Shown: positions 6,721 to 58,400, counted from the first letter of the stretch. The stretch: 64,000 nucleotides of DNA from Acidobacteriota bacterium (GCA_034667465.1 JAXDJV010000010.1:6874-70873), one strand, 5' to 3'. Numbers and translations: made by a program. The notes: generated by a model not told the origin, from the sequence alone.

Positions 6721-6757
6721 CTGACGAGGATAAGACGTTGCGGGTGGTGAGGATGTG

Positions 6758-6887: not shown

Positions 6888-6948
6888 TCCATTCACAGTC
6901 GGCCGCGGCGCGTCGTCTTTTAGTAGACAAACGGTGTCCAAATCCTCC

Positions 6949-20142: not shown

Positions 20143-20155
20143 TACCGTCCCGTCG

Positions 20156-21900: not shown

Positions 21901-21908
21901 AAACAATC

Positions 21909-21932
21909 GCGGCGGCCGTTTCCGGCCGCCGC
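21909..21932. terminator. GC-rich hairpin between convergent genes (probable terminator)
   Basis: GCGGCGGCCG-TTTC-CGGCCGCCGC, a perfect 10-bp stem. Confidence 0.65.
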
Positions 21933-21955
21933 AACGTTGATTCACTGCTGTTCGA

Positions 21956-40899: not shown

Positions 40900-41981
40900 G
40901 ATTGATCCTCCATTTGTCGAATTCGGGGCAGGACGTCGCGCCCGAAAATCATCATTTCTTCGAGTTTGGGCCAGCCGGCGATGATGAACTGCGTCACGCC
41001 AATATTCTTATAAGCGAGAAACGCGTCGCACAACTCTTCGGGAGAGCCGACGAGGGTCATTGCGGACGAACCGTAATAAGGGACGAGTCCCGCCCAGAGG
41101 TTACGATCGAGCCAGCCGATGTCGTCGGCAGCGCTCAGCGCGTCCTTCAATCCCTTCGAATCGCTCGCCTGCAGAATGGCGCGCTCTTCCTTTTCGATCG
41201 CTTCGCTCGGACGGAGCGCTTTCGCCGCCGCGACCGCCTCGTCGTGCGTTGGACGGCAGACGACACAGAGACGGAGACAGCTCTCGATTCCTCCGGCGCG
41301 CATCTTTGCAACCAGCGGTGCGAGCTTTTCGGGCGTGTCGATGAGACGCAGCCATGCGGATGCTTTCGAGAATGCGAGGCGTTCGGCGGCGTCTGAATGT
41401 CCGGAGACGTAAATTTCCGGCGCATTGCGCGAGGGATCGACGAACGGCGTGTTGATCTGACCGTTCTCGACCCGATAGTAGTTGCCGTCGAAATTCACGC
41501 CGTCGCCGTCGCGCCAGAAATCGTGGCAGATGCCGAGGAATTCGTCGGCGCGCGCGTAACGCTCGTCGTGTTCGAGGTAATCGCCGTAGCCGCGCTGCTC
41601 CTCATTGGAACTGCCGGCGACGATGTTCACGGCGACACGCCCATTCGTCAGCGCTGACACGGTGTTGATTTGCTGGACGAACGTCGCCGGCTGCATGAGT
41701 CCGGAGCGGTATGCGACGATGAATTTCAATTTCGTGGTCGCGCGTCCCATCGCGCAGGCGATGAGAATCGTGTCGGGCTCATAGCGGCTGAACGACAGCA
41801 GCACCGATTCAATCCCGGCCGCTTCCGCGCTGCGTGCGAAACGCGTCCACCCTTCGATGTCGGGGATTGCCGCCGGCGATTCCGCCTTTCGCGTGGCGAC
41901 GCGACTCGTTTCCTGCGCGGTCCGCATCCCGACCTCGCCGCCCTTCGGCATCATCCAGTGAAAGCGGAGCGCGTCGTTCAC
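40896..41981 (-). CDS. LLM family oxidoreductase
   Basis: LRFHW, LKFIVAYRSG, GRVAVNIVAG, HDERYARADEF, PEIYVSGHS, LVGSPEE. Confidence 0.92.
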   Translation of the reverse strand: MNDALRFHWMMPKGGEVGMRTAQETSRVATRKAESPAAIPDIEGWTRFARSAEAAGIESVLLSFSRYEPDTILIACAMGRATTKLKFIVAYRSGLMQPATFVQQINTVSALTNGRVAVNIVAGSSNEEQRGYGDYLEHDERYARADEFLGICHDFWRDGDGVNFDGNYYRVENGQINTPFVDPSRNAPEIYVSGHSDAAERLAFSKASAWLRLIDTPEKLAPLVAKMRAGGIESCLRLCVVCRPTHDEAVAAAKALRPSEAIEKEERAILQASDSKGLKDALSAADDIGWLDRNLWAGLVPYYGSSAMTLVGSPEELCDAFLAYKNIGVTQFIIAGWPKLEEMMIFGRDVLPRIRQMEDQS

Positions 41982-43057
41982 GCTACACCTCGCATACGGC
42001 TCTCGCGTTCGCGGACGCGTGGCAGTACTTCGCGGCCGAAGAGATCGAGCTCGGCGATTTCCGGCCAGCCGGAGAGGATGAATTCACTGACGCCGATTCT
42101 CTTGTACTCAATGAATGCTTCGGCGACATCGTCGGGCGTGCCGACCAGGGTCGTCCAGACCGGACCGTAATGCGGCGCGAGTCCGGCCCAGAGCCACGGT
42201 TTCAGGAAATAGGCGTCACGCTCAATGGCCGCCGACTCCGCATACATGCGCGAATCGTCTTTGACCGCGGTCAGATTCGACGTTGTACCGGCAGGCAGCA
42301 TGCTCTGTGCGTGGCGAATCGCTTCGTCGCGCGTCGGGCGGCAGATGATGCAGACGCTGAGACAGACTGCCGTGCCGCGCGCTCGCATTCTGCCGACGGA
42401 CGGCTGGAGTTTTTCCGGTGCGTCGGCGACGCGCAGCCAGGTTGTGCCCTGCGAGACGGCCAGCTCTTCCGACTGTTCGGAATGGCCGGAGATATAAATC
42501 TCCGGTGCCGGTCCGCCGAGCGTTGTGTGAATGCGGCCGCGCTCGACCTGATAATAGCGGCCGTCGAAATCGACGTCGTTGCCGCGCCAGAACGCGTGAC
42601 ATACAGCGAGAAACTCTTCGGCGCGCGCGTACCGCTCGTCGTGCGAGAGAAAATCGCCATAACCATGCTGCTCGGCGGTCGAGCTGCCGGCGACGAGATT
42701 GAGTGCGACACGGCCGTCAGCGAACCGCGACAAGGTATTGAATTGCTGGACGAATGTCGCCGGCTGCATGAGTCCCGATCGATACGCGACGATGAATTTC
42801 AGCTTCTCCGTTTCCTGCGCAAGCGCACAGGCGACGAGCAGCGGATCGGGCTCATGACGCGTCAGCGCAATGAGCGACGAATCGATTCCTGCTTCCTCGG
42901 CGTGCTTCGCGAATGTCAGCCAGCCGTCCATGTCGGTAAGCCGCGCCGGCGACGTCCGGCTGGTCATCGACTCGCAGCGGAAACGGACGGCGTCGAGCGC
43001 CGTCGGCATCGCCACTTCGCCCGGCTTCGGCAGCATCCAGTGGAAGCGGAGATCCAT
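41978..43057 (-). CDS. LLM family oxidoreductase
   Basis: LRFHW, LKFIVAYRSG, GRVALNLVAG, HDERYARAEEF, PEIYISGHS, LVGTPDDV; start at ATG 43057. Confidence 0.92.
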   Translation of the reverse strand: MDLRFHWMLPKPGEVAMPTALDAVRFRCESMTSRTSPARLTDMDGWLTFAKHAEEAGIDSSLIALTRHEPDPLLVACALAQETEKLKFIVAYRSGLMQPATFVQQFNTLSRFADGRVALNLVAGSSTAEQHGYGDFLSHDERYARAEEFLAVCHAFWRGNDVDFDGRYYQVERGRIHTTLGGPAPEIYISGHSEQSEELAVSQGTTWLRVADAPEKLQPSVGRMRARGTAVCLSVCIICRPTRDEAIRHAQSMLPAGTTSNLTAVKDDSRMYAESAAIERDAYFLKPWLWAGLAPHYGPVWTTLVGTPDDVAEAFIEYKRIGVSEFILSGWPEIAELDLFGREVLPRVRERESRMRGVA

Positions 43058-43059
43058 CG

Positions 43060-43908
43060 TCAGACCTCCACCGTCCATGGCACGGTCGGCGGCATGACGC
43101 CGGCGCGCGACGCCCAGTCCTGTAATGCCCACGGCGGCGTGTCGATATCCTTGTAGCCACCGAGGAGCTGGCGGGTGATCGGATCGAGCATCATCAGGCG
43201 GCGGTCGTCCGGACTCTCGAGATAGACCTCCGGTTTCATCCAGCGATAGGCGTAGCCGTACATGACGACTTTCGACGTCCGCTTACTGAAATTCGGCGCG
43301 GCACTGTGGAAAATGCGATTCTCGAAAATGAGCGCGTCGCCGGCATTGAGCTTCATGTCGCAGACCTCGACGTCGGCCGGATCGACTTCGCCCTTTGGCA
43401 GCGCCAGCGGATCGGTCTTCTTATGGCTGCCGCGCGCCATGAGCGTCATCCCGGAATCGCGTTCCGGAAAATCGGTAAGGCAGTAACAGACCTTGATGCC
43501 GACACGCGGCAGACCGCTGTGGCCGAGATCGCGCGGAATGCGAATGTCGCGATGCCAGCCGATCCGGAACGGCGTACCGTCTTCGCCGGCCCAGCGCTTA
43601 TAGATCATTGCCGTCGAATGGAGGTGAATATTCGGCGACAGCAATTGCACGATGAGCGGCACGGCCGGCGATTGCGTGACGAGCGAGAGGAACGGCTTTT
43701 CGCGCAGAAGACCGGGTCGGAGATCGAGGTGGTTGTAATTCGTCTTATGCGAGACCGGCGGCTTGTCGAGGAACGAGCCGGCCAGCCGATCGCCGGCTCT
43801 GACGAGCGCGTCGACGGTCTCGGCATCGAGCGCATTCCGAAGCACGAGAAATCCATCCTCATCGAATGAGCGTCGCTGTTCGGGCTCCAGCCGGTTGAAC
43901 TCCATCAC
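43060..43908 (-). CDS. Phytanoyl-CoA dioxygenase family protein
   Basis: FDEDGFLVL, GWHRD (HxD), GSH, AGDALIF..RIFHSAAPN. Confidence 0.9.
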   Translation of the reverse strand: MMEFNRLEPEQRRSFDEDGFLVLRNALDAETVDALVRAGDRLAGSFLDKPPVSHKTNYNHLDLRPGLLREKPFLSLVTQSPAVPLIVQLLSPNIHLHSTAMIYKRWAGEDGTPFRIGWHRDIRIPRDLGHSGLPRVGIKVCYCLTDFPERDSGMTLMARGSHKKTDPLALPKGEVDPADVEVCDMKLNAGDALIFENRIFHSAAPNFSKRTSKVVMYGYAYRWMKPEVYLESPDDRRLMMLDPITRQLLGGYKDIDTPPWALQDWASRAGVMPPTVPWTVEV

Positions 43909-44639
43909 GATCTCCGAATGACGCAGCAGTGCTGCATTTCATTGTTCGCAGGCGGCAGGATCGTCGCGTGCGGAAACAGCGATCGCATGTAGCCGACGGT
44001 GTGGAAGACATGACACGTCTTCTGTTCCGACGGCGAATAGGGACGAATATCTTCGCGCTCGACGTAAAGATCTTCGCCATTGACGAGCATGAACCAGCTC
44101 GCTCCTTTGACGCGCTTGATCAGCTCCTGTGTCTCCGCGGTCATGACATCGCCGCGCTCCTGTTCGAGGCGCCATTGATAGTTGTTGCCGCCATATGCGG
44201 GCCACGAGCGATGATGCGGATCGATGAACGTAAATGCGAGCACGCCGTTCGGCGAGAGCATCGATTCGAGCTGTCCGACGAGCTGGATCATGTCGGTATG
44301 TGAGGTATTCGGGAAAACCGAGTAGGCGACGATGAAATCGAACGGCCGGCCAAGCTCCGGCACCGGCAATTCGGCAACGCCGTATGGATTGAAGAAGAAG
44401 CAGTAGCGGTCGTAGAAGAGCCAGTTCGCTTTCGGGTACGCGGCTTTGCCGCGATCGATCGATTCTTCGACGACGTCGAGACACCAGTAGCGATCCTCAT
44501 CGATCGTCGACGCCGGATCGCGCAGGATATTGCCGATGTTGCCGCCGAAATCGAGCACCGACTTCCCGCGCCAGTCGTTCTCGCCGACCTGTTGCGAGAA
44601 ATAGGTGAATTGCCCTGTCTTGCGTGAGAAAAAGACCAC
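43905..44639 (-). CDS. Class I SAM-dependent methyltransferase
   Basis: VLDFGGNIG (motif I variant), CLDV, FDFIVAYSVF. Confidence 0.82.
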   Translation of the reverse strand: MVFFSRKTGQFTYFSQQVGENDWRGKSVLDFGGNIGNILRDPASTIDEDRYWCLDVVEESIDRGKAAYPKANWLFYDRYCFFFNPYGVAELPVPELGRPFDFIVAYSVFPNTSHTDMIQLVGQLESMLSPNGVLAFTFIDPHHRSWPAYGGNNYQWRLEQERGDVMTAETQELIKRVKGASWFMLVNGEDLYVEREDIRPYSPSEQKTCHVFHTVGYMRSLFPHATILPPANNEMQHCCVIRRS

Positions 44640-44640
44640 G

Positions 44641-45327
44641 TCACCATCCTTCTCTTAAGACCGATTCGATATCCGCGTACTGAAAACAGGTCACGCGCGA
44701 GCGGTCGTTGCAGTTGTAAATGCGTGGCAGCCACGGCTCGCGGCTCAATTGATTGATGCTTTTGAACGACACCGCATAAACCTCGGCTTTATTACGCGCG
44801 ACGTCGTATTCGTCGAAATGCGTCCCGTTGTCTTCGTAATAGTCGTAGCCGAGGAGATAAATCGGATCGCCGCCGAGAAGGATGGCGGTGTGCAGCGCGG
44901 TGCAGCCGGCGCCGCTGCCGAACCAGCCGTCGGCGAATGAACGTCCGACCTTCGTCGTCATCGACGTTCTGCCGGGCAACAACTCGAATGTATCGACGTT
45001 GTGGATGATCTCGAACGAATTCGCGTTCGTCGCCAGCGGCGCAGCTTTTTCGCCGGCGATGACCATCCCGTTGTAACTGCGCAGCGCGGTCGCGTGCGTG
45101 TTTTGCGCGGTGATGTCGATGAAGTGGATGATCGATGGCGCGTAGTGCTCGATGATCCGATTGATGCCGATCGTGATCCGGCCGTTCAGTCGCGAGAAAT
45201 CGAAGCCGCGCAGGCTGGTGCCGGTCGAGATGACGAAAATCGGCAGCCCTTCGTAAAGGCCATCGAGTCGATGGGCGCGGGAGGTTTGCGAACGGGTCGG
45301 CTCCGGCGCTGTGATGGCGAGGGTCAT
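44641..45327 (-). CDS. DUF115/Maf-like (CstII-like fold) protein
   Basis: FVISTGTSL, IGIN, ALHTAILLG..PIYLLGYD, HF, IYNC. Confidence 0.65.
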   Translation of the reverse strand: MTLAITAPEPTRSQTSRAHRLDGLYEGLPIFVISTGTSLRGFDFSRLNGRITIGINRIIEHYAPSIIHFIDITAQNTHATALRSYNGMVIAGEKAAPLATNANSFEIIHNVDTFELLPGRTSMTTKVGRSFADGWFGSGAGCTALHTAILLGGDPIYLLGYDYYEDNGTHFDEYDVARNKAEVYAVSFKSINQLSREPWLPRIYNCNDRSRVTCFQYADIESVLREGW

Positions 45328-45337
45328 GTCGGGCCGA

Positions 45338-45964
45338 TCAGGGATTCATGGTGTTCGGGCGGTGGATGAGAACGCGGCCGCCGCTGTCGATGACGTGCAG
45401 CCGGTCGCCGGCGCCGACGGCGTGGACGACGAGGCTGCGCAGCGTGTCTTCACCCTGCCACGCGGTGTCGCGGACGGCGAGGTCAAAGAAGCGCTGATTC
45501 TCATTGAAGAAATCGGTGCGGCCGACGTAGAAGCCGCCGATGACTTTCGTCGCGCCGGTGATTTGGAGTGCGCCGAGGTGCGCGTCGATTGTTTTTGCAC
45601 CGCGGCGCGGGCCGAAGAGCACCGCTTCGGGCTCCGCGGCGATGCTCTCCTCGACGTAGCGGAACCAGTCGGAGGCGAGCTGCACGTCGGCGTCGAGCTT
45701 GATGAAGTACGGCGCGGTGGCGAGCTTGTGGAGATCGCGGACGGCGAAGAGCTCGAAGTTCCGGTAGCCGTCGCGGCTGTGATGCGGCTCGTGAAGCACG
45801 TCGTAAAGCCCATCGAGCCGGTGCAGGTCCTCAGGCGAGAGGAAGCAGGAGCCGAGATGGACGCGTCCATGCGGAAGGAGCATCGGGAGAAGGTTCTCGA
45901 GCAGCGGGACGTGTTCTTCTCCGCCGCAAACGAATAAATCGAATGCCGTTTTGGGGTCGTTCAT
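45338..45964 (-). CDS. Hypothetical DxD-motif glycosyltransferase-like protein
   Basis: YFIKLDAD, IGGFY, GED pattern of GT-A folds; first gene of the minus-strand operon. Confidence 0.55.
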   Translation of the reverse strand: MNDPKTAFDLFVCGGEEHVPLLENLLPMLLPHGRVHLGSCFLSPEDLHRLDGLYDVLHEPHHSRDGYRNFELFAVRDLHKLATAPYFIKLDADVQLASDWFRYVEESIAAEPEAVLFGPRRGAKTIDAHLGALQITGATKVIGGFYVGRTDFFNENQRFFDLAVRDTAWQGEDTLRSLVVHAVGAGDRLHVIDSGGRVLIHRPNTMNP

Positions 45965-46060: not shown

Positions 46061-46411
46061 ATGGGCGACACGAGATCCTGGTGGCTGGCGGCGGCAGAGC
46101 TGTACATCGCTGAGTGTGAGGCGCACGCGAGCTCGGTCCGCGCCTCGGAGTTCGCATCGCGGATGCAGCGAACGCCGGTGCAGCTCGTCCGCGAGTTCCG
46201 GCAGTCGGTCGGTTTCTGCGTGAAGGTCTACTTCAGCAGCCGCCAGATCGCGCGCGCCGCCGAGCTGCTGCGGACGACGCGGCGAACGACGGCCGACATC
46301 GCCCTGCGCGCGGGGTTCGGGACGTCGCGATCGTTCTTCCGCGCCTTCCGGCGTTCCACCGGAATGTCGCCAGCGGAATTCAGGAAACAAATGTCACTTG
46401 GCGAGCAATAG
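46061..46411 (+). CDS. Stand-alone AraC-type HTH regulator
   Basis: L.REFRQSVG, RAAELLRTT..T.ADIALRAGFGTSRSFFRAFRRSTGMSPAEFR; no N-terminal sensor domain. Confidence 0.88.
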   Translation: MGDTRSWWLAAAELYIAECEAHASSVRASEFASRMQRTPVQLVREFRQSVGFCVKVYFSSRQIARAAELLRTTRRTTADIALRAGFGTSRSFFRAFRRSTGMSPAEFRKQMSLGEQ

Positions 46412-46624
46412 TTAGGGCATTAAGTTCCGCGTTACGTCCTCTGGTTTCCCGGTACGCGGAATTAGTGTCGATGCTTCAGCGAAGCACAGCAGGGATCCCC
46501 GGCCGTTCCGGGAAGCTCGCGCGAACACTCCTCCGCGCCGACTACTCACACCGCCATTTTCGATCACTGAGCGCCGCCCGCGGCGGCAGCTGAACCTGCG
46601 ACACAACAACGCAAGGAGCACAAG

Positions 46625-48418
46625 ATGGCGAAGAACGATCCTCCCCCGAGTGCAGACTTCATCGGCCGCGTCGTCGGCGACGCGAAGAACCCGCCGGCGG
46701 TGCGAATGCTCACCGGCTGGCTCGGTGCGTCCGGCGAAGAAAACTATTCGCGTCTCTACACCGATGCGGAGCTGAGCGCGTACGTCGACATTCCGTCGGA
46801 CGCGATCCTCTACACGGAGCCGATCCGCGACGTGCAGCCGGCCGGCGGCGTGATGGTGTGGGTGAAGAGCGATGCGGTGCTCAAGGCCGGTGGTTCCGCT
46901 GCCAGCCGCGCCGCGCGTTTCCTCCAGGGACAGGTCCAGCAGGATTTCGCCAAAGACCCTGCCGCGATCGGCAAAGCCGGATTCCGCTGCGTGACCGAGG
47001 TGCCGTGCGGTGAGCCGACCGGCTTCAGCGGACTCTGTACGAATGCGCCGCAGATGGGCGGTGCGTGGCCGTGCTTCACTGCGCCGCCGCACTGTTTCGA
47101 GCCGACCGGGTTCACCGGCAAATGCACGCCGGTGCCGTGGCCGAATCCGACCGAGTACGTCGGCTGCACCATCTATCACTGTCCGACGAACGACCTGACG
47201 CAGAACCCGCGCATCTGCCGGCTCATCGAAACGCATCTGCCGAATTGCCCGCCGGCAGGCGCTGACGTCGATCCACAGCGTCCGCCGACCTCGCTGGAAG
47301 GCTGCGGCTACACGAAGTCGTGGGGCTTGTGTGACACGCGGATTCCGAACTGTCCGCCGCAGACGGCTGGTTGTCCGGTGATCCCGACGCAGACTCCCGG
47401 CTGCAGCTTCAGTAAGAATCCGATCTGCACCGATCTGCCGGGATGCGCGACGAACACCGCGCCGCCGCGATGCATCTTCATCACACGCGACCAGGCGTGC
47501 GGCGTGACGAAGCGGCCGGGATGCGGACCCCTCTTCGCGCAAGCCGCGCGATTCGGAGTCGATACCGCGCCGATCGATACCGCGCCGGCGCCGGTGGTTC
47601 AGCCGCAGACGGTGATCAATTTCAACTGCGCGCCGTCGTTCTCATTCGACTGTCAGCCGAGCACGACGCCGGATTGCAACCCATCGGCGATCGACGCCTG
47701 TCCGACCATAAAGATATGCGTGACTACGCATTGTGATACCGCGCAACCGACGTCGTTGTGTACGCAGTTCGCCGCAGCCTGCCCGACGAAGTTCGCCGAA
47801 GTTTGCCCGACGCAGCCGCCGAACGTTTGCCCGACGCAGTCGCCGAACCTTTGCACGACGGCGTGCGGCGAGAAGTGTCAGTCGCAACAGCTCGAATGTA
47901 CGAAGGTCGGATGTCTAACCCATGTCGGTCCGGCGTGTCCGAATACCGTGTCATTCCCCGACTGTCCGCAGCCGACGGTCGATCCGAATCAGTGCCCGAC
48001 GATTCCGGGACCGTTGTGCCCGGACACGTTCGTGACGGGATGTCCTCCGTCGCAGTTCGGCGTGCCGTGTCCGACGAACGGCGGTCCTCAGTGTCCGTCA
48101 GTCGCCTTCCCGTGTCCGACCGATACAGCGCTCGATTGCACGTTCACCGTCACGCTCGACGGTGCGAATTGCCCGACGCAGTTCAGTCCGAACTGCCAGA
48201 GCGTCGTCATCTGTCAGCAGACGGTGCCCGCGCCGTGCACGATCAACGTCGCGCAGCCGTTCGCGGCCGCGCGTCAGCAGCAGGTCGCATCGCAGTTCTG
48301 TCCGCGGCCGACGATCTGGACGCAGATCGGACCGCGATGCTTTCCAACGGTGACTCGCAACATTAACTGTCTGATCACGAATGTGTGTCCGACGGTGCTT
48401 CCATTCTGTGCGAGGTGA
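46625..48418 (+). CDS. Giant Cys/Thr/Pro-rich putative RiPP (lanthipeptide-like) precursor
   Basis: 597 aa; first 121 aa Cys-free, then 53 Cys (manual count) in short C-x(3-12) units rich in Thr and Pro; directly upstream of the kinase/lyase/cyclase genes. Confidence 0.75.
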   Translation: MAKNDPPPSADFIGRVVGDAKNPPAVRMLTGWLGASGEENYSRLYTDAELSAYVDIPSDAILYTEPIRDVQPAGGVMVWVKSDAVLKAGGSAASRAARFLQGQVQQDFAKDPAAIGKAGFRCVTEVPCGEPTGFSGLCTNAPQMGGAWPCFTAPPHCFEPTGFTGKCTPVPWPNPTEYVGCTIYHCPTNDLTQNPRICRLIETHLPNCPPAGADVDPQRPPTSLEGCGYTKSWGLCDTRIPNCPPQTAGCPVIPTQTPGCSFSKNPICTDLPGCATNTAPPRCIFITRDQACGVTKRPGCGPLFAQAARFGVDTAPIDTAPAPVVQPQTVINFNCAPSFSFDCQPSTTPDCNPSAIDACPTIKICVTTHCDTAQPTSLCTQFAAACPTKFAEVCPTQPPNVCPTQSPNLCTTACGEKCQSQQLECTKVGCLTHVGPACPNTVSFPDCPQPTVDPNQCPTIPGPLCPDTFVTGCPPSQFGVPCPTNGGPQCPSVAFPCPTDTALDCTFTVTLDGANCPTQFSPNCQSVVICQQTVPAPCTINVAQPFAAARQQQVASQFCPRPTIWTQIGPRCFPTVTRNINCLITNVCPTVLPFCAR

Positions 48419-48424
48419 GCGGGA

Positions 48425-49525
48425 GTGAATCGTAACGATCTCGTTCATTACCTCATCGAGCGCGGGCTCCTCGATCATCGCGTCGTCGTCGACGGCGACG
48501 TGATGGTCGTGGAGGGGACGCGCCGTCATCACAACTTCTCCGTCATCTGCCGAGACGGCGCCGGGCTGTTCGTCAAGCAGATGCAGCCCGATCAGGCGTT
48601 CTCCGCGCAGACGCTGCAGAAGGAAGCGGCGTGCTACGTGATGATGGAGAGCGATCCGGCGCTGGCCGGTATCCACGCGCTGATGCCGCGCTTTCGTTCG
48701 TACGATCCCGATCGTCATCTGCTTGTGCTCGATCTGATCGCCGGCGGTGAGAATCTTTCCGAGTTTCATCGCCGCGTGAATGCGTTCCCGGAAGGGGTCG
48801 CACGCCGCGTCGGCGAGCTCGTGGCGCGCTATCACGAGACGTCGCGCCGCGACCTGCTGCCGCGCGCGAACGCTGCGATCTTTCAGGGACAACCGCCGTG
48901 GATTCTCTCGTTTCATCTGATGCCGCGCGGCTCGATGCAGAACCTGAGCGCGGCGAACGGACAGTTCATGACGATCCTGCAGAGCTACCCCGATTTCGGA
49001 GTGGAGCTCGACCGGTTGCGAACCGGCTGGAGGCGGGATGCACTGATGCATGGCGACATGAAGTTCGACAATGTGGTCGTGCAGACTGACGCCGCGACGA
49101 ATGAGCAGACGATGCACGTCGTCGACTGGGAACTGGCCGACGTCGGTGATTCCGCGTGGGACGTCGCGTCGATTCTGCAGGCGTATCTGACGTGGTGGAT
49201 CGCCACGCTGCAAGAGGTTCCGGCCGGTGCGTCGAATGATGCGGCGCGGTATCCGCTCGAAACGATTCAGCCGGCCATTCGCGCGTTCTGGGACGCGTAC
49301 GTATCGGCGCGCGGACTGACGTCGCGCGACGCTGACGCGGAGCTCGAGCGCGCCGTCAGCTACGCTGGCGCGCGGATGCTGCAAACCGTTTATGAATCGA
49401 TGGTGTGGGCGCAGTCGCTCACGCAGCAGGCGGTCTGGCAGGTGCAGGCCTGCATGAACATCCTGCGCGATCCGCGTTCCGCCGCCAGCGATCTCCTCGG
49501 CTTCACGGCAGGTGTCCATGTCTGA
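48425..49525 (+). CDS. Aminoglycoside-phosphotransferase-like kinase (LanK-like)
   Basis: LFVKQ, LMHGDMKFDN, VDWELADVGD. Confidence 0.88.
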   Translation: MNRNDLVHYLIERGLLDHRVVVDGDVMVVEGTRRHHNFSVICRDGAGLFVKQMQPDQAFSAQTLQKEAACYVMMESDPALAGIHALMPRFRSYDPDRHLLVLDLIAGGENLSEFHRRVNAFPEGVARRVGELVARYHETSRRDLLPRANAAIFQGQPPWILSFHLMPRGSMQNLSAANGQFMTILQSYPDFGVELDRLRTGWRRDALMHGDMKFDNVVVQTDAATNEQTMHVVDWELADVGDSAWDVASILQAYLTWWIATLQEVPAGASNDAARYPLETIQPAIRAFWDAYVSARGLTSRDADAELERAVSYAGARMLQTVYESMVWAQSLTQQAVWQVQACMNILRDPRSAASDLLGFTAGVHV

Positions 49526-50525
49526 CGAAGCGCTGCGCACTCTCCTTCGCGCCGTCGCCATCCACTCGCCGATGGAGTACGAGCTGGCCGGCCGCACTCA
49601 CAAAGTCGCGCCGTTCGGCGCCGGACAATCACCAACGTGGACGTCATGGTCCGCCGGCGAACCGCCGCTCGTCGTCGACCTGACGACGCGCATCTATGAG
49701 GAGGCGTATTGCCGTCCGCTCGGCACGCGGCAGGAGCCGCCGCAAACGAGCGTCAGTCTGCCCGTGAGTCTTATTGAGGACCTGTCCGCCGCAAACGCGG
49801 GACGCGACCGGTGGGAGAACGGCTGGACGCTCGTGCAGCTGATGCCGAACGGCCACGCGTCGGCGCGCAAGGGCGATCTTGCGAACACGTTCGCACCCGG
49901 CGAGTTCGCCGCGGCAAGCGCCGGCGCTTTGTCGCCCGGTGCCGCGGTTCACGTGCAGTTCGCGCGCGAATCGCGAACGCAGCAGCCCGGTTTCTACATC
50001 GTCAACGGCGAGACGCCGGCGCCGTCCGGTTCCGACAGCCGGATGACGCGGATCTACTGGCACATCTCCGAGGACGGTGCGGTGCCGCTGACGCGCGCGG
50101 TGTCGACGCTGCTCAATCGGTACGAGGCGCCGTTCCGTTTCAAAACGCTTGCGTACACGAGTGCGTACTCGCGTGCCGATTCGGCGGTGCTCTTCTTCGC
50201 GGCGCGCTACTTCCAGCTCATCGCACGGCTGCTGCCGGCAATCCGCGCGGAGATTCGCGATCATCTGCGCGAAGCGACGCCGCTGATGACGTATCGGCTG
50301 GCGAATGGAATTGGATTGGCCGAGGATCCGGCGACGGGGGAGAGTTTCGGAATGAGCCGGAGCCGATTGATCGCGCAGGCGATCTGGGATGCGTACGCCC
50401 GCGGCACGCAAAGCGAGGAGTCGCGCATGATGGAACTGTCGATCCAGTTCAGCCGCCACGGACTCTCGCTCGACAAACCGCATCTGCGCGCGGCCAGCGC
50501 CGACATTTACGAGGTGGCGGCGTGA
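49518..50525 (+). CDS. HopA1-like phosphothreonine/phosphoserine lyase (LanY-like)
   Basis: RIYW, PFRFK, RADSAVLF, LAEDP..GESFG.SR motifs; adjacent to an APH kinase as in class V lanthipeptide and thioamitide loci. Confidence 0.78.
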   Translation: MSDEALRTLLRAVAIHSPMEYELAGRTHKVAPFGAGQSPTWTSWSAGEPPLVVDLTTRIYEEAYCRPLGTRQEPPQTSVSLPVSLIEDLSAANAGRDRWENGWTLVQLMPNGHASARKGDLANTFAPGEFAAASAGALSPGAAVHVQFARESRTQQPGFYIVNGETPAPSGSDSRMTRIYWHISEDGAVPLTRAVSTLLNRYEAPFRFKTLAYTSAYSRADSAVLFFAARYFQLIARLLPAIRAEIRDHLREATPLMTYRLANGIGLAEDPATGESFGMSRSRLIAQAIWDAYARGTQSEESRMMELSIQFSRHGLSLDKPHLRAASADIYEVAA

Positions 50526-51787
50526 GCGCGCTTCCGCTGGAACTGCCTGGTGCCGATCCGCGGGAACGTTTTCTCGAAGTGGCGTGGTCGATCGGCATGC
50601 GGCTTTGCCGCGACGCCATTCACGACGGAGATCGGTGTAACTGGCTCGGCGATTCGATGGAAGCGCACGCGGGCGAATGGAAGGTCGCGCACAAATCGTT
50701 CGGACCCGATTTCTACGCCGGCACCAGCGGCATCGCCCTGTTTCTCGCACAGCTCTGGCGCTTCCGCCGCGATCCGCTGGTGGCCGATATAGCGCGGGCG
50801 GCGGTGCGGCAGGCGTTGTCGCGTACCGAGCGAATCCCGGCGTCGCTGCGCCATGCGCTTTACAGCGGCTGGGTCGGCATCGCGCTCGCGCTCTTCGACG
50901 TCGCGCAAATTTTCGACGACGCATCGCTGCAACGCGACGCGCTGCGTCTCGTCGACGACCAGCGCGGGTTGCCGCTCGACGCGATGTCGCTCGACGTTGT
51001 CAGCGGCTCCGCCGGTTCCATCCTCGGCCTTTGCGCGCTCGACGCGCGACTCGGCGGCGATCATTTTCTCGACGAAGCGTTGCGTCACGGCGAGCATCTC
51101 CTCGCACAGGCGCATCGCGCGAACGATGTCTGGTCGTGGACGACGATGGCGCCGATCGGCGGCCAGCAGAAAGACCTCTGCGGCTTTTCGCACGGCGCTG
51201 CCGGCATCGCGCTGGCGTTACTCGAGCTCTACACGCGAACGCACGACGAGCGATTCCGCGAAGGAGCGCTCGGCGGTTTCGCATACGAGCGGTTGCATTT
51301 CTCCGCCGAACAGCAGAACTGGCCGGATTTTCGTTCGTTCGCGTCGCCGAACGTGCAGCAACTCGGATACTCCATGGCGTGGTGTCATGGCGCGCCCGGC
51401 ATCGGTCTGTCGCGTTTGGGCGCTTATGCGCTGACCCGCGATGACGTTTTCCGCGGCGAAGCGGAGTCGGCGATCGGCGGAACGTATCGCGCCATCTCGA
51501 TGAGCAACGGCGCGGAAGGCTATTCGCTATGCCACGGACTGGCGGGCAACGCCGAGCTCTTTATCGTCGCCGCCGACATCCTCGGCGATGAGCGTTACCG
51601 CGCGGTTGCCGACGCCGCCGGCGATCGCGGCATCCACGCCATTCACATCAATCGCAACCCCTGGCCGTGCGGCGTGACCGGAGGCGGCGAAGCGCCGAAC
51701 CTGATGCTCGGCACCGCCGGTATCGGCTACTTCTACCTGCGCCTGTACGACTCCGGCGCCGTCCCCTCCATCCTCCTGCAGATGTGA
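50522..51787 (+). CDS. Stand-alone LanC-like lanthionine cyclase
   Basis: From GTG 50522; FYAGTSG, DVVSGSAG, GFSHGAAG, AWCHGAPG, LCHGLAG (Zn ligands Cys/Cys/His present), LMLGTAG. Confidence 0.92.
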   Translation: MSALPLELPGADPRERFLEVAWSIGMRLCRDAIHDGDRCNWLGDSMEAHAGEWKVAHKSFGPDFYAGTSGIALFLAQLWRFRRDPLVADIARAAVRQALSRTERIPASLRHALYSGWVGIALALFDVAQIFDDASLQRDALRLVDDQRGLPLDAMSLDVVSGSAGSILGLCALDARLGGDHFLDEALRHGEHLLAQAHRANDVWSWTTMAPIGGQQKDLCGFSHGAAGIALALLELYTRTHDERFREGALGGFAYERLHFSAEQQNWPDFRSFASPNVQQLGYSMAWCHGAPGIGLSRLGAYALTRDDVFRGEAESAIGGTYRAISMSNGAEGYSLCHGLAGNAELFIVAADILGDERYRAVADAAGDRGIHAIHINRNPWPCGVTGGGEAPNLMLGTAGIGYFYLRLYDSGAVPSILLQM

Positions 51788-51812: not shown

Positions 51813-52745
51813 ATGAGCAAGGCCGCGTTGTACCGAGGATTGATGATGGTGACGGCGGTCGGGCGGAGGCTGTCGCTCGACGCCGGACGTGCCATCGGCC
51901 GGTTCCTCGGCGCGCTCGCGTGGCATGTTGCGCGGCGCGAACGGTTGAAGGCGCTGCGGAATCTTGCGATCGCGTTTCCGGAGCTGAGCGACGCCGAGCG
52001 GCGCGCGCTCTCGAAGCGGATGTTCGCGCACCTCGGCATGTCGCTGCTCGAGCTCACCTGGATCCCGAACGTCAACGCGGCGAACAGACACGAGACCACC
52101 GTCGTCGAAGGGCTCGACAAAGTGCTCGAGGTCATCGACTCCGGACGCGGCGTCATCATCTTCACTGCGCACTGCGGCAACTGGGAATGGCTCTCGTACA
52201 TCACCGGAACGTTCGGCCGGCCGGTCTCCGTGCTGCAGCGCGAGCGCGACGAGCCGGCGATGAATCGCTACATCACCGAACTGCGCGCGAAAGCGGGCGT
52301 GAAGACGATCGATCGCGGCTCCGGTTCCGCGGCGCGCGACATGATCAACGCCATCCGCCGCGGCGGCATCCTCGCGTTCGTGCTCGATCAGAACATCCGC
52401 ACCGAAAGTGTGAAGGTCCCGTTCTTCGGACGGCCGGCGCTGACGCCGATCGGACCGGTGAGCTTCGCCATTCGCACCGAAGCGACGATCAGCGTCGCGT
52501 TCATCGAACGACGCGACGATGGGAAGCAGTACGCGCGCTTTGAGACGCCGATTCATCTCAAACGGACCGACGATCCGATCGACGTCGCCGCGCAGATCAC
52601 GCAGCGGATCGAAGAACAGATCCGGCGCGTACCGGAACAGTGGGTCTGGATGCACGATCGCTGGCGCGAGCGGCCGAAGTGGGAAGTCGATCCCGATTCC
52701 CTGCGCGACAAAACGCGAAAGGTGAGCGTGCCGGGCAGCGCTTAG
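51813..52745 (+). CDS. Lipid A late acyltransferase (LpxL/HtrB family)
   Basis: HCGNWE, DQN, FFG, EEQIRRVPEQWVWMHDRW. Confidence 0.9.
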   Translation: MSKAALYRGLMMVTAVGRRLSLDAGRAIGRFLGALAWHVARRERLKALRNLAIAFPELSDAERRALSKRMFAHLGMSLLELTWIPNVNAANRHETTVVEGLDKVLEVIDSGRGVIIFTAHCGNWEWLSYITGTFGRPVSVLQRERDEPAMNRYITELRAKAGVKTIDRGSGSAARDMINAIRRGGILAFVLDQNIRTESVKVPFFGRPALTPIGPVSFAIRTEATISVAFIERRDDGKQYARFETPIHLKRTDDPIDVAAQITQRIEEQIRRVPEQWVWMHDRWRERPKWEVDPDSLRDKTRKVSVPGSA

Positions 52746-52761
52746 GCGGACGAGTTATCAT

Positions 52762-54552
52762 GTGGCACCGATGACCACCGTTTCCCATTCGCCGACCGGC
52801 GCGCGGCGGCAGTTCTGCCTCGTGCTGGTGAAGCCGTCGCACTACGACGACGATGGATACGTCATCCAGTGGTTCCGCTCCGCGATTCCGTCGAACTCGC
52901 TGGCGTCGCTCTACGGCCTCGCGCGTGATTGCGCGCAGCGCAACGTCCTCGGCGACGACGTCGATCTGGCCATTCACAGCTACGACGAAACGAACACCCG
53001 CATCCGTCCCGATCGTCTCGCGAAGATGATCGAGCGCGCCGGCGCCGGCATGGTCATGCTCGTCGGCGTGCAGTCGAATCAGTTTCCGCGCGCGCTCGAT
53101 CTCGCACGTCCGCTGCGCGCGCTCGGCGTCCAGGTCGGCATCGGCGGCTTCCACGTTTCGGGCACGATCAGCATGCTGCGCGGCATCGACAAGGGTCTCG
53201 ACGAAGCGCGTGCTCTCGGCGTCTCGCTCTTCGCCGGCGAAGCGGAAGGGCGACTCGAAGAAGTGCTGCGCGATGCGATGAACGGCGCGCTGCGGCCGAT
53301 GTACAACTACATGGCCGACCTGCCGCACATCGAAGGAACGCCGATCCCGCTCATCACCGCGTTGCGCGCGTGGCGGACGGCCGGCGGGGTGACGAGTTTC
53401 GACGCCGGCCGCGGCTGTCCGTTCCAGTGTTCGTTCTGCACGATCATTAACGTGCAGGGGAAGAAATCGCGCCGCCGTTCGCCCGACGACATCGAACAGA
53501 TCGTCCGCGTCAACGTCGCCCAGGGACTGCACTCGTTCTTCATCACCGACGACAACTTCGCGCGCAACACCGACTGGGAAGCGATCCTCGATCGTCTCAT
53601 CAAGCTGCGCGAAGAAGGGATCAGGATTCACTTCATCATCCAGGTCGACACGCTCTGCCATCGCATCCCGCGCTTCATCGAGAAGTGCGCGAAAGCGGGC
53701 GTGCGCCGCGTCTTCATCGGACTCGAGAACATCAATCCCGACAGTCTCGTCGGCGCGAAGAAGCGGCAGAACAAGATCACCGAATATCGCAAGATGCTCC
53801 TCGCGTGGAAGTCGGCGCGCGTCATCACGTACGCCGGTTACATCCTCGGATTTCCGAACGACGATCTCGAGTCGATTCGCCGCGACATCGAGATCATCAA
53901 GAAAGAACTGCCGGTCGATCTCCTCGAGTTCTTCTTCCTCACGCCGCTGCCGGGATCGGAAGATCATCAGAAGCTCGTCGGCGCCGGCGTGCCGGTCGAT
54001 GATGACCTCAACAAATTCGATCTCAATCACGTCACTACCGCGCATCCGAAGATGTCACCGGATGAATGGGAGCGCGCGTATCGGATGGCGTGGGACACGT
54101 ATTACACGCCGGAGCATGTCGAGTCGGTGTTGCGCCGGCTCGTGGCGATGCGCGCCAGTGCGAGCAACGCCATCCTGCTGATGACGTGGTTCAAAGGCTC
54201 GATTCATATTGAAGGCGTTCATCCGCTCGAAGCGGGCCTCTTCCGCTACAAGTTCCGCGCGGATCGCCGTCCCGGATTTCCGGTCGAGCCGGCGTGGCGT
54301 TTCTGGCCTGGTTATGCGATCGAATCGATCGGGAAATTGTCGCGCTGGACGAAGACCTACTTCGGACTGCGCCGCATCTACAACCGCGTCAAGAAAGATC
54401 CGCAGCGATACGAGTACATGGACCTCGCGCTGACGCCGGTCACGGATGCGGAGTTCGACACGCTGGAGCTCTTCCATCACACCGACGCCGCGGAAGCGTT
54501 CGTGGCGCGCGAGCATCACCCGGCGGCGGTTGCAGCCGCGCCCGCTTCCTGA
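52762..54552 (+). CDS. Cobalamin-binding radical SAM protein
   Basis: N-terminal B12-binding-like domain (IGGFHVSG, GEAEG), RGCPFQCSFC (CxxxCxxC), TDDNF, GLE, YILG, PLPG. Confidence 0.9.
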   Translation: MAPMTTVSHSPTGARRQFCLVLVKPSHYDDDGYVIQWFRSAIPSNSLASLYGLARDCAQRNVLGDDVDLAIHSYDETNTRIRPDRLAKMIERAGAGMVMLVGVQSNQFPRALDLARPLRALGVQVGIGGFHVSGTISMLRGIDKGLDEARALGVSLFAGEAEGRLEEVLRDAMNGALRPMYNYMADLPHIEGTPIPLITALRAWRTAGGVTSFDAGRGCPFQCSFCTIINVQGKKSRRRSPDDIEQIVRVNVAQGLHSFFITDDNFARNTDWEAILDRLIKLREEGIRIHFIIQVDTLCHRIPRFIEKCAKAGVRRVFIGLENINPDSLVGAKKRQNKITEYRKMLLAWKSARVITYAGYILGFPNDDLESIRRDIEIIKKELPVDLLEFFFLTPLPGSEDHQKLVGAGVPVDDDLNKFDLNHVTTAHPKMSPDEWERAYRMAWDTYYTPEHVESVLRRLVAMRASASNAILLMTWFKGSIHIEGVHPLEAGLFRYKFRADRRPGFPVEPAWRFWPGYAIESIGKLSRWTKTYFGLRRIYNRVKKDPQRYEYMDLALTPVTDAEFDTLELFHHTDAAEAFVAREHHPAAVAAAPAS

Positions 54553-54588
54553 AACCCGAGCGCAGTACGCGCGTAATTCGCAGTACCG

Positions 54589-55461
54589 ATGCTCCGGATC
54601 TCAGGTCTCTCCAAAACATATTCGAATGGTGTTCGCGCGCTCGATGACGTAACGCTCTCGATCGACTCCGGCCTCTTCGGTCTGCTCGGGCCGAACGGCG
54701 CCGGCAAGTCGACGCTGATGCGCACGATCGCGCGGCTGCAGGAACCCGATCGCGGCGAGCTCACTCTCGACGGCATTGACGTCCGCCGCGAGCCTCACCA
54801 GCTCCGCCGCCGCCTCGGCTATCTGCCGCAGGAGTTCGGCGTCTATCCAAACATTTCCGCGCTGGCGCTGCTCGATCACATCGCGGTGCTCAAGAAGTTG
54901 ACCAATCGCGCCGAGCGGACCGAACAGGTTCATGCGCTGCTGCAGCTGACGAACCTCTGGGAGTTTCGGAAGAAAGCGGTGAACACGTTTTCGGGCGGGA
55001 TGAAGCAGCGCTTCGGCATCGCTCAGGCGCTGCTCGGCAAGCCGCGATTGATCATCGTCGATGAGCCGACCGCAGGACTCGATCCCGAAGAGCGCAATCG
55101 TTTTCACAATCTGCTGAGCGAGATCGGCGAGGGAGCGGTCGTGCTGCTGTCGACGCACATCGTCGAGGATGTGAGCGATCTCTGTCCGAAGATGGCCATC
55201 CTCGCGCGCGGCCGCGTGCTGATGGAAGGGGAGCCGTCGCGCGTCATCGAAAGCCTGCGCGGAAAGTTGTGGCGGAAGACGATCGCGAAGGCTGCGCTGC
55301 CTGAGTACGAGCAGGCGCACAAGGTGATCTCGACGCGGCTCTTCGCCGGCCGGACGCAGGTGAACGTGCTCGCCGATTCGCAGCCGGAAGGTGGATTCGA
55401 AGCGGTGCCGCCGGAGCTGGAGGACGTCTACTTTTCGGTGCTTTCGGGGAGCGCGCTCTGA
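54589..55461 (+). CDS. ABC transporter ATP-binding protein
   Basis: GPNGAGKST, LPQE, FSGGMKQR, IIVDEPTAGLDP, STH. Confidence 0.96.
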   Translation: MLRISGLSKTYSNGVRALDDVTLSIDSGLFGLLGPNGAGKSTLMRTIARLQEPDRGELTLDGIDVRREPHQLRRRLGYLPQEFGVYPNISALALLDHIAVLKKLTNRAERTEQVHALLQLTNLWEFRKKAVNTFSGGMKQRFGIAQALLGKPRLIIVDEPTAGLDPEERNRFHNLLSEIGEGAVVLLSTHIVEDVSDLCPKMAILARGRVLMEGEPSRVIESLRGKLWRKTIAKAALPEYEQAHKVISTRLFAGRTQVNVLADSQPEGGFEAVPPELEDVYFSVLSGSAL

Positions 55462-58400
55462 AAGAGCTCCTCCAATTCGAGTGGCGCTATCACACGCGCC
55501 AGGCATCCTTCCTCGCGGCCGCGGTCCTCTTCTTTCTCCTCGGGTTCGCAATCGCGGCGACGAGCTTCGGCCCCGGCAACGTGCTGATCACCTCGCCGTT
55601 TCTGATCACCGAATCGCTGGCGTTGCTGTCGCTCTTCGCCGCATTCGCGGTGGCGATCTTCGCGTCGAACGCCGTGCTGCGCGATTCCGAATTCGCGATG
55701 GAGGAGATCGTCTTCACGACTCCGGTCGGACGCGTCGCGTACGTCGCGTCGCGCTTCACCGGCGCATACGCGGCGGCGCTGACGGCGACGGCGTTCGCGG
55801 TGCCGGGAATGATGCTCGCGACGCGGATGCCGTGGATCGATCCCGAGCGCGTCGGTCTGTTCTCACTCCTCGCATACGCGCAGGCGTTTCTGCTTTTTGC
55901 GGTGCCGAACATTCTCTTCATCACCGCGATCCTTTTCTTCGTCGCGGTGATGACGCGCAGCGCGGTCGCGACGTACGTCGCCGCGGCGCTGCTCTACTTT
56001 TTGTACTTTGCCGCCGCCGCGCTGACGAACTCGCCGCTGATGGCCGGTTCCGCGCCGGGAGCGACGAGCGGCGCGTGGGTGGCGCTGCTCGATCCGTTCG
56101 GACTGTCGGGATTTTTCGAGCAGACGCGTTTCTGGACGATCGCCGAGAAGAACACGCGCGTCGTGTCGCTGACCGGAACGCTGCTGTTCAATCGCGTCGC
56201 GTGGCTGGCGATCGCGATGGCGCTCGGCGCGCTGCTGACGAAGATCTTCGCGTTTCAGGCGACGCCGAAACGGTCACGCAAGAGCGAACGCGCCGTCATC
56301 CTGAGCGTTAGCGAAGGATCCGGGCGGGAGGGGCGCGCCGAGGTACGTTCGCCCCGCCCTCCCGGATCCCTCGCTCACGCTCGGGATGACATCGCGTGGC
56401 TGGGCGCATTCCGATCCTCCGCGAAAATCGAGCGCTCGCTTCTCCTGCGCAGTCTCCCCTTCATTCTTCTGCTCGTTGCGTGGACGCTGCTCTCGATCAC
56501 CGAGGTCGCGTCGTCGATCACGGCGGCGGAGTACGGCTCGCTTTATTACCCGACGACGGCGCTGACGACGCGCGCGCTGCAGCAGCCGCTGTCGATCATG
56601 GCGACGCTGCTGCTGATCTGGTTCGCGGCGGAGATCTTCTGGCGCGAGCAGCGATTTCGTTTCGCCGGCATCGCGGAAAGCACGCCGCTGAACGGTTCCG
56701 AGATCATCGCGGCAAAGATCGCGGCGCTGGTCACGCTCGTCGCATCGCTGATCGGCTGCAGCATCATCGCCGCGGTCATCGTGCAAATCGCGCACGGCTG
56801 GTTCCGCTTCGAGCCGCAGCTCTATCTCGCGTTCGCGTACTTCATCGGCGCGCCGCTCGTCGCGCTGGCGATGGCGTTCGCGCTCATTCACGCCGTCAGT
56901 CCGGGACGCCATGTCGGGATGGTGGCGACGCTGCTCTTCGTCATCTACACGCGCATCGGCGGCGCGATCGGTCTCGACAATCGGTTGTGGCGCTTCGGGA
57001 CTGCAGCGACGCCCGGCTACTCGGAGCTGAACGGCTTCGATCGCGCCGCGGTCGCGTTCCACTGGTTCATGTTGCTGTGGGTGCTCGTCGGATTCGCGGC
57101 GGCGGTCATTGCGTCGAGCATGTGGCGACGCAGTGGTCGCAGTATTCGCGAACGGCTCGTGCTCGCGCGTCGCTCGAAACTCGCGGCGGCGCTGCTGATT
57201 CCGATCGTCGTCATCGGCGCGTGGATTTACTACAACACCGACGTCCTCAATCGAAACGAATCGGCCGCGCAGGTGAATGACTGGAAGGCTGCGTACGAGA
57301 AGACGTATGGCCGATTTGCGAAAGCGCCGCGTCCGCACATCGCCGAGATCGACGCCGCATTCGACCTCGCACCGGAACGGCAGAGCATTCGCGCGCACGG
57401 CACGTATCGGCTGCTCAACTCAACGAACGGACCGCTGTCGATGCTGCTCGTCTCGGTGCGACGCGATGCGCGACGCGTTGCGCTGTCCGTCGACGGCGCG
57501 CGACTGGCGTCCGCCGACACGCGCTTCGGCATGTATCGCTTCGAGCTCGCGCAGCCGCTCGCCGCCGGCGCCTCGACGACGCTGCACTACGACCTCGCGC
57601 TTGAAGAGCGCGGCTTCGAAGATGGCGCCGGCGAGAACGCCATCGTGCGCAACGGCTCGTATCTGATGAGCTTCCGGATCATGCCGATCGTCGGCTATCG
57701 CGCGACGTACGAACTGCAGGACCGGAAAGAGCGGGCGCGGCATGGGCTGCCTGCGGTCGAAGAGACCGTGCGCGACGACACGCACGGCGACGCGGAAGAA
57801 GAAGCGGCAGCCGACTGGGTGAAGTTGTCGACGACGATCTCGACCTCGCCCGATCAGATCGCCGTCGGTCCCGGACGTCTCGAGCGCGAGTGGAGCGAGC
57901 ACGGACGGCGCTACTTCCGTTATCGCGTCGAGCCGCTCGTCATCAATCGTTTCGCCATCGCGTCGGCGCGCTACAACGTGCAGCGCTGCACGCGGCAGGG
58001 GATCGACGTCGCCGTCTACTACCAGCCCGGACACGAAGTGAACGTGGCGCGAATGTGCGATGCCGCGACGTCATCGCTCGACCTTTTCACGCAGCGCTTC
58101 GGCCCGTATCCGCATCGCGACCTGCGGCTCGTTGAAGCGCCGGCGCACGCGCCGTTCGCCGGCTACGCGACGCCGTCCGTGATCTTCCTCAACGAAGGAC
58201 GAAGCTTCCTGATCGACGCGCGCGATCCCGTCCGCGTCGACCTCGTCACGCGCCGCGTCGCGCACGAAGTCGCGCATCAGTGGTGGGGTTATCGCATCGA
58301 CGCCATCACCGGACGCGGCGCGCCGGCGATCGTCGAATCGCTGACGAAATACGCCGAGCTGATGATCATCGAGAAAAAGTACGGCCGCGAAGCCGCGCGG

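Follow-up and report, generated by a model that had tools for sequence, protein, structure and literature searches.

What does a set of lanthionine-forming enzymes modify when the sole candidate substrate next to it is a protein of 597 amino acids? This question is raised by a locus at positions 46625-51787 of a 64,000-nucleotide stretch of DNA from an Acidobacteriota bacterium (GCA_034667465.1, JAXDJV010000010.1:6874-70873), the whole of which is referred to as the window. The usual picture of a lanthipeptide is a small peptide that has 20-40 residues and 1-6 rings, and lanthipeptide precursors typically have fewer than 100 amino acids. Here, a Cys/Thr/Pro-rich protein is encoded directly ahead of three predicted enzymes, LanK, LanY, and LanC. 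The gene order and the sequence of the protein suggest that the locus is probably a class Vb-type lanthionine-installing operon, in which the co-transcribed 597-residue protein would be the substrate. Together with a small helix-turn-helix (HTH) gene, the open reading frames (ORFs) form a five-gene unit on the + strand:

46061-46411, + strand: small AraC-type HTH regulator, 116 amino acids (PF12833 HTH_18, E = 8.5e-16)
46612-46617, + strand: Shine-Dalgarno sequence AAGGAG, 7 nucleotides ahead of the precursor ATG, read from the sequence
46625-48418, + strand: precursor, N-terminal domain plus Cys/Thr/Pro-rich core, 597 amino acids
48425-49525, + strand: LanK, APH-fold Ser/Thr kinase, 366 amino acids (PF01636)
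49512-50525, + strand: LanY, HopA1-like phospho-Ser/Thr lyase, 337 amino acids (PF17914)
50522-51787, + strand: LanC, zinc-dependent lanthionine cyclase, 421 amino acids (PF05147)

The last four genes are tightly packed or overlapping, as the initial annotation had described them, with spacings of +6, -14, and -4 nucleotides between precursor and LanK, LanK and LanY, and LanY and LanC, respectively. LanC starts with a GTG codon that overlaps the LanY stop codon as GTGA, and the four genes are translationally coupled. No small LanA-like ORF is present in the 213-nucleotide gap between the HTH gene and the precursor or overlapping the gene junctions, and ORFs on the opposite strand of the cassette are without family matches.

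The 597-residue protein contains 53 Cys, 64 Thr, and 85 Pro, a count that bears out its first description as Cys/Thr/Pro-rich, and it has no match in Pfam or NCBIfam. It is divided into the following parts:

46625-46960, + strand: N-terminal leader-like domain (N-domain), residues 1-112, β-rich and ending in a helix (residues 92-110)
46988-48415, + strand: core, residues 122-597 (476 amino acids), with 53 Cys, 61 Thr, and 18 Ser
47525-47626, + strand: Cys-free linker 1, residues 301-334, beginning with GPLFAQAARF
47762-47860, + strand: tandem repeat of 24 nucleotides (8 codons), 4.1 copies (TRF score 113, 85% matches)
48239-48298, + strand: Cys-free linker 2, residues 539-558, TINVAQPFAAARQQQVASQF

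Residues 1-121 are free of cysteine. The cysteines of the core fall into four blocks (residues 122-208, 227-300, 335-538, and 559-595), and the protein ends in ...FCAR. AlphaFold2 gives the core no secondary structure at a predicted local distance difference test (pLDDT) score of ~35, and the core is predicted to be disordered. The placement of its residues is far from random. A Thr or Ser is found 4-6 positions ahead of the cysteine and in the same inter-Cys segment for 44 of the 53 cysteines, compared to 13.8 ± 2.8 in shuffled sequences (n = 5000, maximum 24). At a wider range of 3-7 positions, 50 of the 53 cysteines have such a residue (20.1 ± 3.0 in shuffles), and 51 of the 52 inter-Cys segments contain Thr or Ser (31.1 ± 2.7 expected). 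Gaps of three residues or fewer between cysteines do not occur (15.6 expected), and CC, CxC, and CxxC are all absent. The core can be read as a predicted chain of [T/S]-x3-5-C rings. The 24-nucleotide repeat encodes CPTxxxxx units (residues ~380-412, CTQFAAACPTKFAEVCPTQPPNVCPTQSPNLC), which shows a recent expansion of the core in 8-residue steps.

The N-domain shows the opposite behavior in the model, with pLDDT values above 90 for about residues 20-90. The helix at its end is amphipathic and bears an FLxGxV..DF motif (F-L-x-G-x-V/I...D-F). Foldseek searches with the full model and with the N-domain alone return no fold neighbor in the PDB below E = 0.4, a profile search returns no PDB sequence neighbor, and NHLP, Nif11, or other Pfam and NCBIfam models do not match the domain. 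The strong Shine-Dalgarno sequence fixes the start codon of the precursor, which is therefore without a signal peptide. A confidently modeled N-domain that is followed by a disordered core is as expected for a substrate resembling the precursor of a ribosomally synthesized, post-translationally modified peptide (RiPP), and we infer that the N-domain is the leader or recognition element for the enzymes.

The same arrangement is found throughout the family. The precursor has 92 homologs of 350-1038 amino acids without a Pfam domain, and all of those that bear a name come from metagenome-assembled genomes (MAGs) of Thermoanaerobaculia. The following statistics refer to the 77 full-length members with 5,046 core cysteines. 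Thr occupies positions -6 and -5 of Cys in 1501 and 1523 cases (~555 expected), and the commonest gaps between cysteines are 7 residues (1151 compared to 274) and 8 residues (756 compared to 240). CC (29 compared to 537 expected), CxC (26 compared to 479), and CxxC (119 compared to 429) are depleted about 4- to 20-fold. The Cys:Thr ratio is 0.97 ± 0.10 (r = 0.90), and the Cys count is odd in 62% of the proteins. A directionality test was used to differentiate between a Thr that belongs to the following Cys and a Cys-Pro-Thr that acts as a unit. Where a block closes, at a linker or the C-terminus, its last Cys has Thr or Ser at -6 to -4 in 75% of the cases but at +1/+2 in only 5% (64% for internal cysteines, background 28%). 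An upstream donor is still present for 74% of the cysteines that come first after a linker (background 40%). The predicted donor is thus located N-terminal to its Cys with a span of i to i+4-6, which is the canonical logic of a lanthionine ring. The family extends further when the N-domain profile is used, which matches 2,515 clusters (at 50% identity), 1,226 of them at E ≤ 1e-10. Among the clusters listed, the longest N-domain protein has 1,248 amino acids, and the cores have a median Cys content of 11%, a median Cys gap of 7, and an upstream Thr or Ser for 77% of the cysteines.

Two further features of the family were noted. Residues 354-359 of the window precursor (SAIDAC, nucleotides ~47684-47701) are an instance of a motif, [SA]A[VI]D[AT]C. 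Of 215 family proteins examined, 68 contain it, in one to five copies each and often at block ends or near the C-terminus. In most family proteins, the last Cys lies 0-5 residues from the C-terminus.

A protein of this composition could also be a structural protein with disulfides or bound metal, similar to mucins or insect antifreeze proteins, while LanK, LanY, and LanC act on an unlinked peptide. Cys/Thr-rich repeat proteins with disulfides exist, for example the TCT repeats of beetle antifreeze proteins, and one homolog (L018) is found without the three enzymes nearby. The spacing and directionality described above, however, argue against a disulfide or metal-binding role, and the placement of Thr and Ser depends on the Cys that follows. 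The strong depletion of CC, CxC, and CxxC, the odd Cys number in 62% of the family, the core to which AlphaFold2 gives no fold, and the lack of a signal peptide behind a start fixed by a strong Shine-Dalgarno sequence all speak in the same direction. Moreover, an alternative LanA ORF is absent at the locus, and precursor and enzymes are linked across phyla in both search directions. A structural role is very unlikely.

The linkage itself was traced from both sides. In the loci found via the precursor, the genes keep the order precursor-LanK-LanY-LanC wherever a genome or metagenome locus includes enough flanking sequence, except in L017, in which the precursor follows the three enzymes (LanK-LanY-LanC-precursor). 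The flanking genes are unrelated from locus to locus. The linked loci belong to Thermoanaerobaculia, Pyrinomonadaceae, Solirubrobacteraceae, and another Actinomycetota MAG, and the distant members L022 and L023 keep the same order. Across the loci, the enzymes are 70-83% identical and the precursor about 45%. In the opposite direction, 80 metagenome loci were collected via LanY, of which 33 contain at least 1.5 kb upstream of LanK. An N-domain ORF is located upstream of LanK in 26 of these 33, which answers the initial annotation's proposal to survey homologous loci for an upstream Cys-rich ORF. Most of the exceptions carry other Cys/Thr-rich precursors of ~75-470 amino acids that share a leader motif, [FY][FL]xGx[IV]. 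They include L045 with 468 amino acids, L063 with 439, L096 with a short precursor of ~75 amino acids and a similar leader motif, and L087 with 209 amino acids in three exact core-plus-spacer repeats with the spacer PQFG. N-domain precursors and shorter ones beside one enzyme set point to a continuum from peptide-sized to giant substrates. The earlier proposal that the 597-residue protein is the substrate is supported by this two-way synteny, by the coupling of Cys to Thr and Ser, and by the predicted disorder of the core.

Some of the related precursors are highly repetitive. A 439-residue precursor with 73 Cys and 76 Thr is encoded ahead of LanK-LanY-LanC in L063/L071 (3326-4642); it consists of CGGPT(H/Q)CGGIHTCAPTC(A/V)PT repeats, and its leader has just ~15 amino acids (MSIQDFVQGPI...). 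L022 contains two N-domain precursors, at 5356-6963 (535 amino acids) and 7253-8095 (280 amino acids), and the larger one has about 20 near-perfect CPP[ST]QFPPQ nonapeptide repeats.

The three enzymes all matched their profiles in the searches that the initial annotation had suggested, and the motifs it had named for the kinase and the cyclase are in place. LanK matches PF01636 (E = 2.4e-9, 37.7 bits with a cutoff of 23.2) and contains HGDMKFDN from residue 209 and DWE at residue 234. LanY matches PF17914 (HopA1, E = 8e-35), and its residues R180, K211, and R221 align with R187, K219, and R229 of CaoY, which matter for CaoY by mutagenesis (PMC9486802). LanC matches PF05147 (LANC_like, E = 1e-54) and contains GFSHG (221), WCHGAPG (287), and LCHGLAGN (336). 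The His of GFSHG and the Cys and Cys-His of WCHG and LCHG align to the catalytic His and the zinc ligands of LicM2 and LanCL2. The best scores of LanC are obtained against the LanM C-terminal model (281 bits) and LicM2 (E = 1e-23), well ahead of LanCL, and the LanL and LanKC models of NCBIfam match the LanC part alone (149 bits with a cutoff of 650, and 83 bits with a cutoff of 575). The domains and catalytic residues of LanK, LanY, and LanC are all intact. The top PDB sequence matches are 9dk1_A ("Kinase") for LanK and 9dk1_B ("Lyase") for LanY. CaoK and CaoY dehydrate Ser and Thr in vitro (PMC9486802). The chemistry of LanK, LanY, and LanC is established for homologs and would apply to the window enzymes by analogy.

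Several points weigh against the 597-residue protein as the substrate of a class Vb-type cassette. The window enzymes are only distantly related to the characterized ones of this class. LanK matches the NCBIfam model LxmK with E = 5e-28, but with 98 bits at a cutoff of 315, which makes it a distant member and not an LxmK equivalog, and the matches of LanK and LanY to 9dk1 are weak (E ~1e-4). Residue 228 of LanY is a Phe at the site of CaoY Tyr236 and SpvC Tyr158; a Tyr is present at this position in 16 of the 18 orthologs examined, and L017 also has a Phe. The core contains more Thr and Ser (79) than Cys (53), so that some hydroxyl residues would stay unmodified or dehydrated. The L018 homolog has none of the three enzymes in the 1.4 kb available upstream or in ~7 kb downstream. 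Finally, no transporter or immunity gene is linked at the cassette or conserved in the related loci, and the window also has no linked protease. All of this is unusual for a lanthipeptide cluster.

If the 597-residue protein is the substrate, the reaction would start with the recruitment of the enzymes by the Cys-free, folded N-domain of ~112 amino acids, which would act as the leader. LanK would phosphorylate Thr and Ser residues of the unstructured 476-residue core, and LanY would subsequently eliminate the phosphate to yield dehydrobutyrine and dehydroalanine. The zinc-dependent LanC would then close a ring from each Cys by adding its thiol to the dehydro residue that precedes the Cys by 4-6 positions. 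About 44-50 (methyl)lanthionine rings are predicted, most of them without overlap, which would follow one another head to tail every 7-8 residues and fall into the four Cys blocks parted by Ala/Gly/Gln-rich linkers. In related loci, a C1 peptidase probably removes the N-domain and/or cuts the linkers. A flavoprotein (LanD) or second APH protein (LanX) was not found in Pfam scans of the neighboring ORFs between 39.7 and 59 kb, and the related loci share no gene of either kind. Without LanD and LanX in the cassette, S-[(Z)-2-aminovinyl]-cysteine (AviCys) is not expected; the same had been concluded earlier, and the ...FCAR end of the protein agrees with it.

The last step could take a different course. 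LanK and LanY may dehydrate the core while LanC adds a small-molecule thiol, or the rings may form spontaneously, and the topology would then not be a regular i to i+4-6. The PDB names LanCL1 a glutathione S-transferase (8d0v, 8czk), and the structural matches of LanC include LanCL proteins. A LanC-free cyclization is documented for class Va (PMC11186320), and in class Vb SmoC alters the ring pattern compared to spontaneous cyclization (PMC12328550), from which it follows that the topology is not readable from sequence alone. The Cys:Thr ratio near 1:1 and the fixed, directional spacing, on the other hand, point to intramolecular pairing, and LanC scores best against the cyclase domains of lanthipeptide synthetases, well ahead of LanCL. 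Thiol addition or an irregular, spontaneous topology is improbable.

If regular rings are installed, the modified protein may stay in one piece or be cut afterwards. The 77 homologs contain 445 Cys-free linkers (5.8 per protein) that are rich in Ala, Gly, Pro, and Gln. A Q-x-F-[AG]-A motif occurs in them 65 times, compared to 4.3 ± 2.1 in within-linker shuffles, commonly 15-23 residues ahead of the next Cys, and a similar motif, Q-x-[FY]-[AGSE], closes the N-domain in 51 of the 77 proteins. About a third of the related loci encode a C1 peptidase of the papain type (PF00112, above cutoff) directly upstream of the precursor: L003/4 (9111-10001), L007, L008, L009, L017, L023 (6185-6940), and several of the loci collected via LanY. 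Its Q/C/H/N-W motifs are intact, and it is likely the processing protease for the related precursors; the 64-kb window does not contain it. Linker motifs and C1 peptidase together keep a multi-core, proteolytically processed product a serious alternative. The enzymology would be the same, but the polyprotein would be cut at the linkers and after the N-domain into polycyclic lanthipeptides of 5-28 rings each. Precursors with a long conserved N-terminal region and hypervariable or repeated cores are known from NHLP- and Nif11-leader lanthipeptides, from proteusins, and from the multi-core precursors of cyanobactins, dikaritins, and cyclotides, and the core copy number in such precursors changes by tandem duplication. 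The non-random linker motif, its counterpart at the end of the N-domain, the upstream C1 peptidase in several related loci, and the three exact core-plus-spacer repeats of L087 favor such cutting. However, a protease is linked neither in the window nor in most loci, the linkers are not recognized by a profile of the leader helix, and conservation of the first core module, taken as a unit, is 60-68%. Cutting into several products is plausible, at somewhat less than an even chance. Separately, it was considered whether each linker is a degenerate copy of the leader helix, and this was rejected, as a hidden Markov model of residues 92-110 was negative on the 77 cores, with results similar to those for shuffled sequences.

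The uncut product would be of a different scale. A protein 600 to over 1,200 amino acids long would be turned into one lasting chain of 50-100 or more thioether macrocycles, guided by a globular leader of a kind not seen before, and would represent a new cross-linked material or a multi-warhead RiPP that is abundant in soil Acidobacteriota (~2,500 clusters), including one sub-clade whose leader is split off by a stop codon and acts in trans or is joined by programmed readthrough. This full picture is possible but rather doubtful. To our knowledge, no described lanthipeptide precursor approaches ~50-100 cysteines.

In the sub-clade concerned, an in-frame stop codon (TAA or TAG) is located exactly at the junction of leader and core, right after ...ALANYFAGAI (L105/L106, 6001-7173; L107, 3001-4389; L108, from 1823; L109, from 3001). 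The position is a Gln in 47 of 71 relatives. In L105/6 and L107, the Cys/Thr-rich core runs on in the same frame for 264-340 codons past the stop. Six distinct proteins end at the stop residue, one of them from a different data source, and L105 has a paralog without the in-frame stop. Leader and core may be split at this point or be joined by programmed readthrough, or the stop could be an artifact of sequencing or of a pseudogene.

The enzyme set is best compared to class V lanthipeptide systems. LanK and LanY with a dedicated LanC have been titled "class Vb" and make (methyl)lanthionine, and mSmoA from Streptomyces (with SmoK, SmoY, and SmoC) is the sole characterized member (PMC11186320, PMC12291118). 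The window cassette shares with class Vb the stand-alone APH-type kinase (PF01636), the HopA1-like lyase (PF17914), and the dedicated zinc LanC. LanD and LanX are missing from both, so that (methyl)lanthionine only, without AviCys, would be expected. The SmoA product is described as a small peptide whose three rings include two that overlap ("stapled") (PMC11186320, PMC12291118, PMC12328550), whereas the window holds a 597-residue substrate candidate with a folded N-domain of ~112 amino acids and about 50 mostly non-overlapping predicted rings, in an Acidobacteriota genome. Class Va (cacaoidin, lexapeptide, pristinin, triantimycins, and rosins) shares the LanK/LanY chemistry and the Arg/Lys/Arg of CaoY. 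It needs LanD and LanX, forms a C-terminal S-[(Z)-2-aminovinyl]-3-methyl-cysteine, and has no LanC, while the window cassette has a LanC but neither LanD nor LanX, and its precursor ends in ...FCAR.

The other classes are more remote. Class IV (LanL) and class III (LanKC) follow the same logic of kinase, phospho-lyase, and cyclase, and the LanL cyclase also has the zinc LanC fold. In those classes, however, a single polypeptide of three domains acts on short peptides, its lyase being of the OspF type and its kinase a Ser/Thr protein kinase domain, whereas the cassette described here encodes its three enzymes separately and uses the APH and HopA1 folds. Class I uses a glutamyl-tRNA-dependent LanB dehydratase together with LanC, and no LanB-type family was found among the cassette ORFs and the scanned flanking ORFs of the window. 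The tha/the clusters of Thermoanaerobaculia (PMC13083261) resemble the family in their bacterial class, N-terminal leader, and Cys-rich core, but they use a class II LanM and a thiazole-making GMC oxidoreductase on a peptide-sized precursor and have no LanK, LanY, or LanC (PMC13083261). Class V has so far been reported from actinobacteria only (2025 review). A full-text literature search, which did not cover the primary class Vb paper, found no description of giant precursors for LanK, LanY, and LanC. The initial annotation had put the locus forward as an undescribed system. This applies to the precursor, since the enzyme architecture of LanK, LanY, and stand-alone LanC is already published as class Vb; the precursor family with its new leader domain is undescribed and is located in a new phylum.

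Among the genes around the cassette, the HTH gene recurs in other loci. AraC-type HTH homologs directly precede the precursor in L001/L010, L003/4, L007, L008, L013, and L017 and are also present in several of the loci collected via LanY, overall in about half of the loci; the gene is likely the regulator of the cassette. Downstream, at 51813-59006 on the + strand, an LpxL-like acyltransferase, a 596-residue B12-binding-type radical S-adenosylmethionine (SAM) protein, an ABC ATPase, and a 1141-residue protein in which an ABC-2 permease is fused to an M1 peptidase are encoded. The radical SAM, ABC, and M1 peptidase genes were considered as export or processing partners and rejected, as they are not conserved beside the cassette elsewhere, and the LpxL-like gene does not recur next to it in other loci either. 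Upstream, the - strand carries a tightly packed operon (39724-45964) for a RidA-domain fusion, two luciferase-like monooxygenases, a PhyH-type dioxygenase, and a SAM methyltransferase; two further ORFs of the operon match no family. The GC content there is lower (0.60-0.62 compared to ~0.65), and the operon may be a separate tailoring cluster for a small molecule. The AT skew is strongly negative (about -0.21) at 20001-22000 and 24001-26000 compared to the remainder of the window. A plasmid or mobile origin was rejected after a megablast search against PLSDB without a match, and an anti-phage defense system was rejected with zero PADLOC matches for all five cassette proteins.

If the 597-residue protein is indeed the substrate, a known three-enzyme machinery would serve substrates 10-30 times larger than usual, with about 50 rings predicted in the window protein and more than 100 cysteines in relatives, and the size range of RiPPs would be greatly extended. 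The N-domain would be a new leader or recognition domain with thousands of members, and class V chemistry would reach beyond Actinobacteria into Acidobacteriota. The family would thereby offer a natural scaffold together with an enzyme set for the installation of many thioether staples in long polypeptides.

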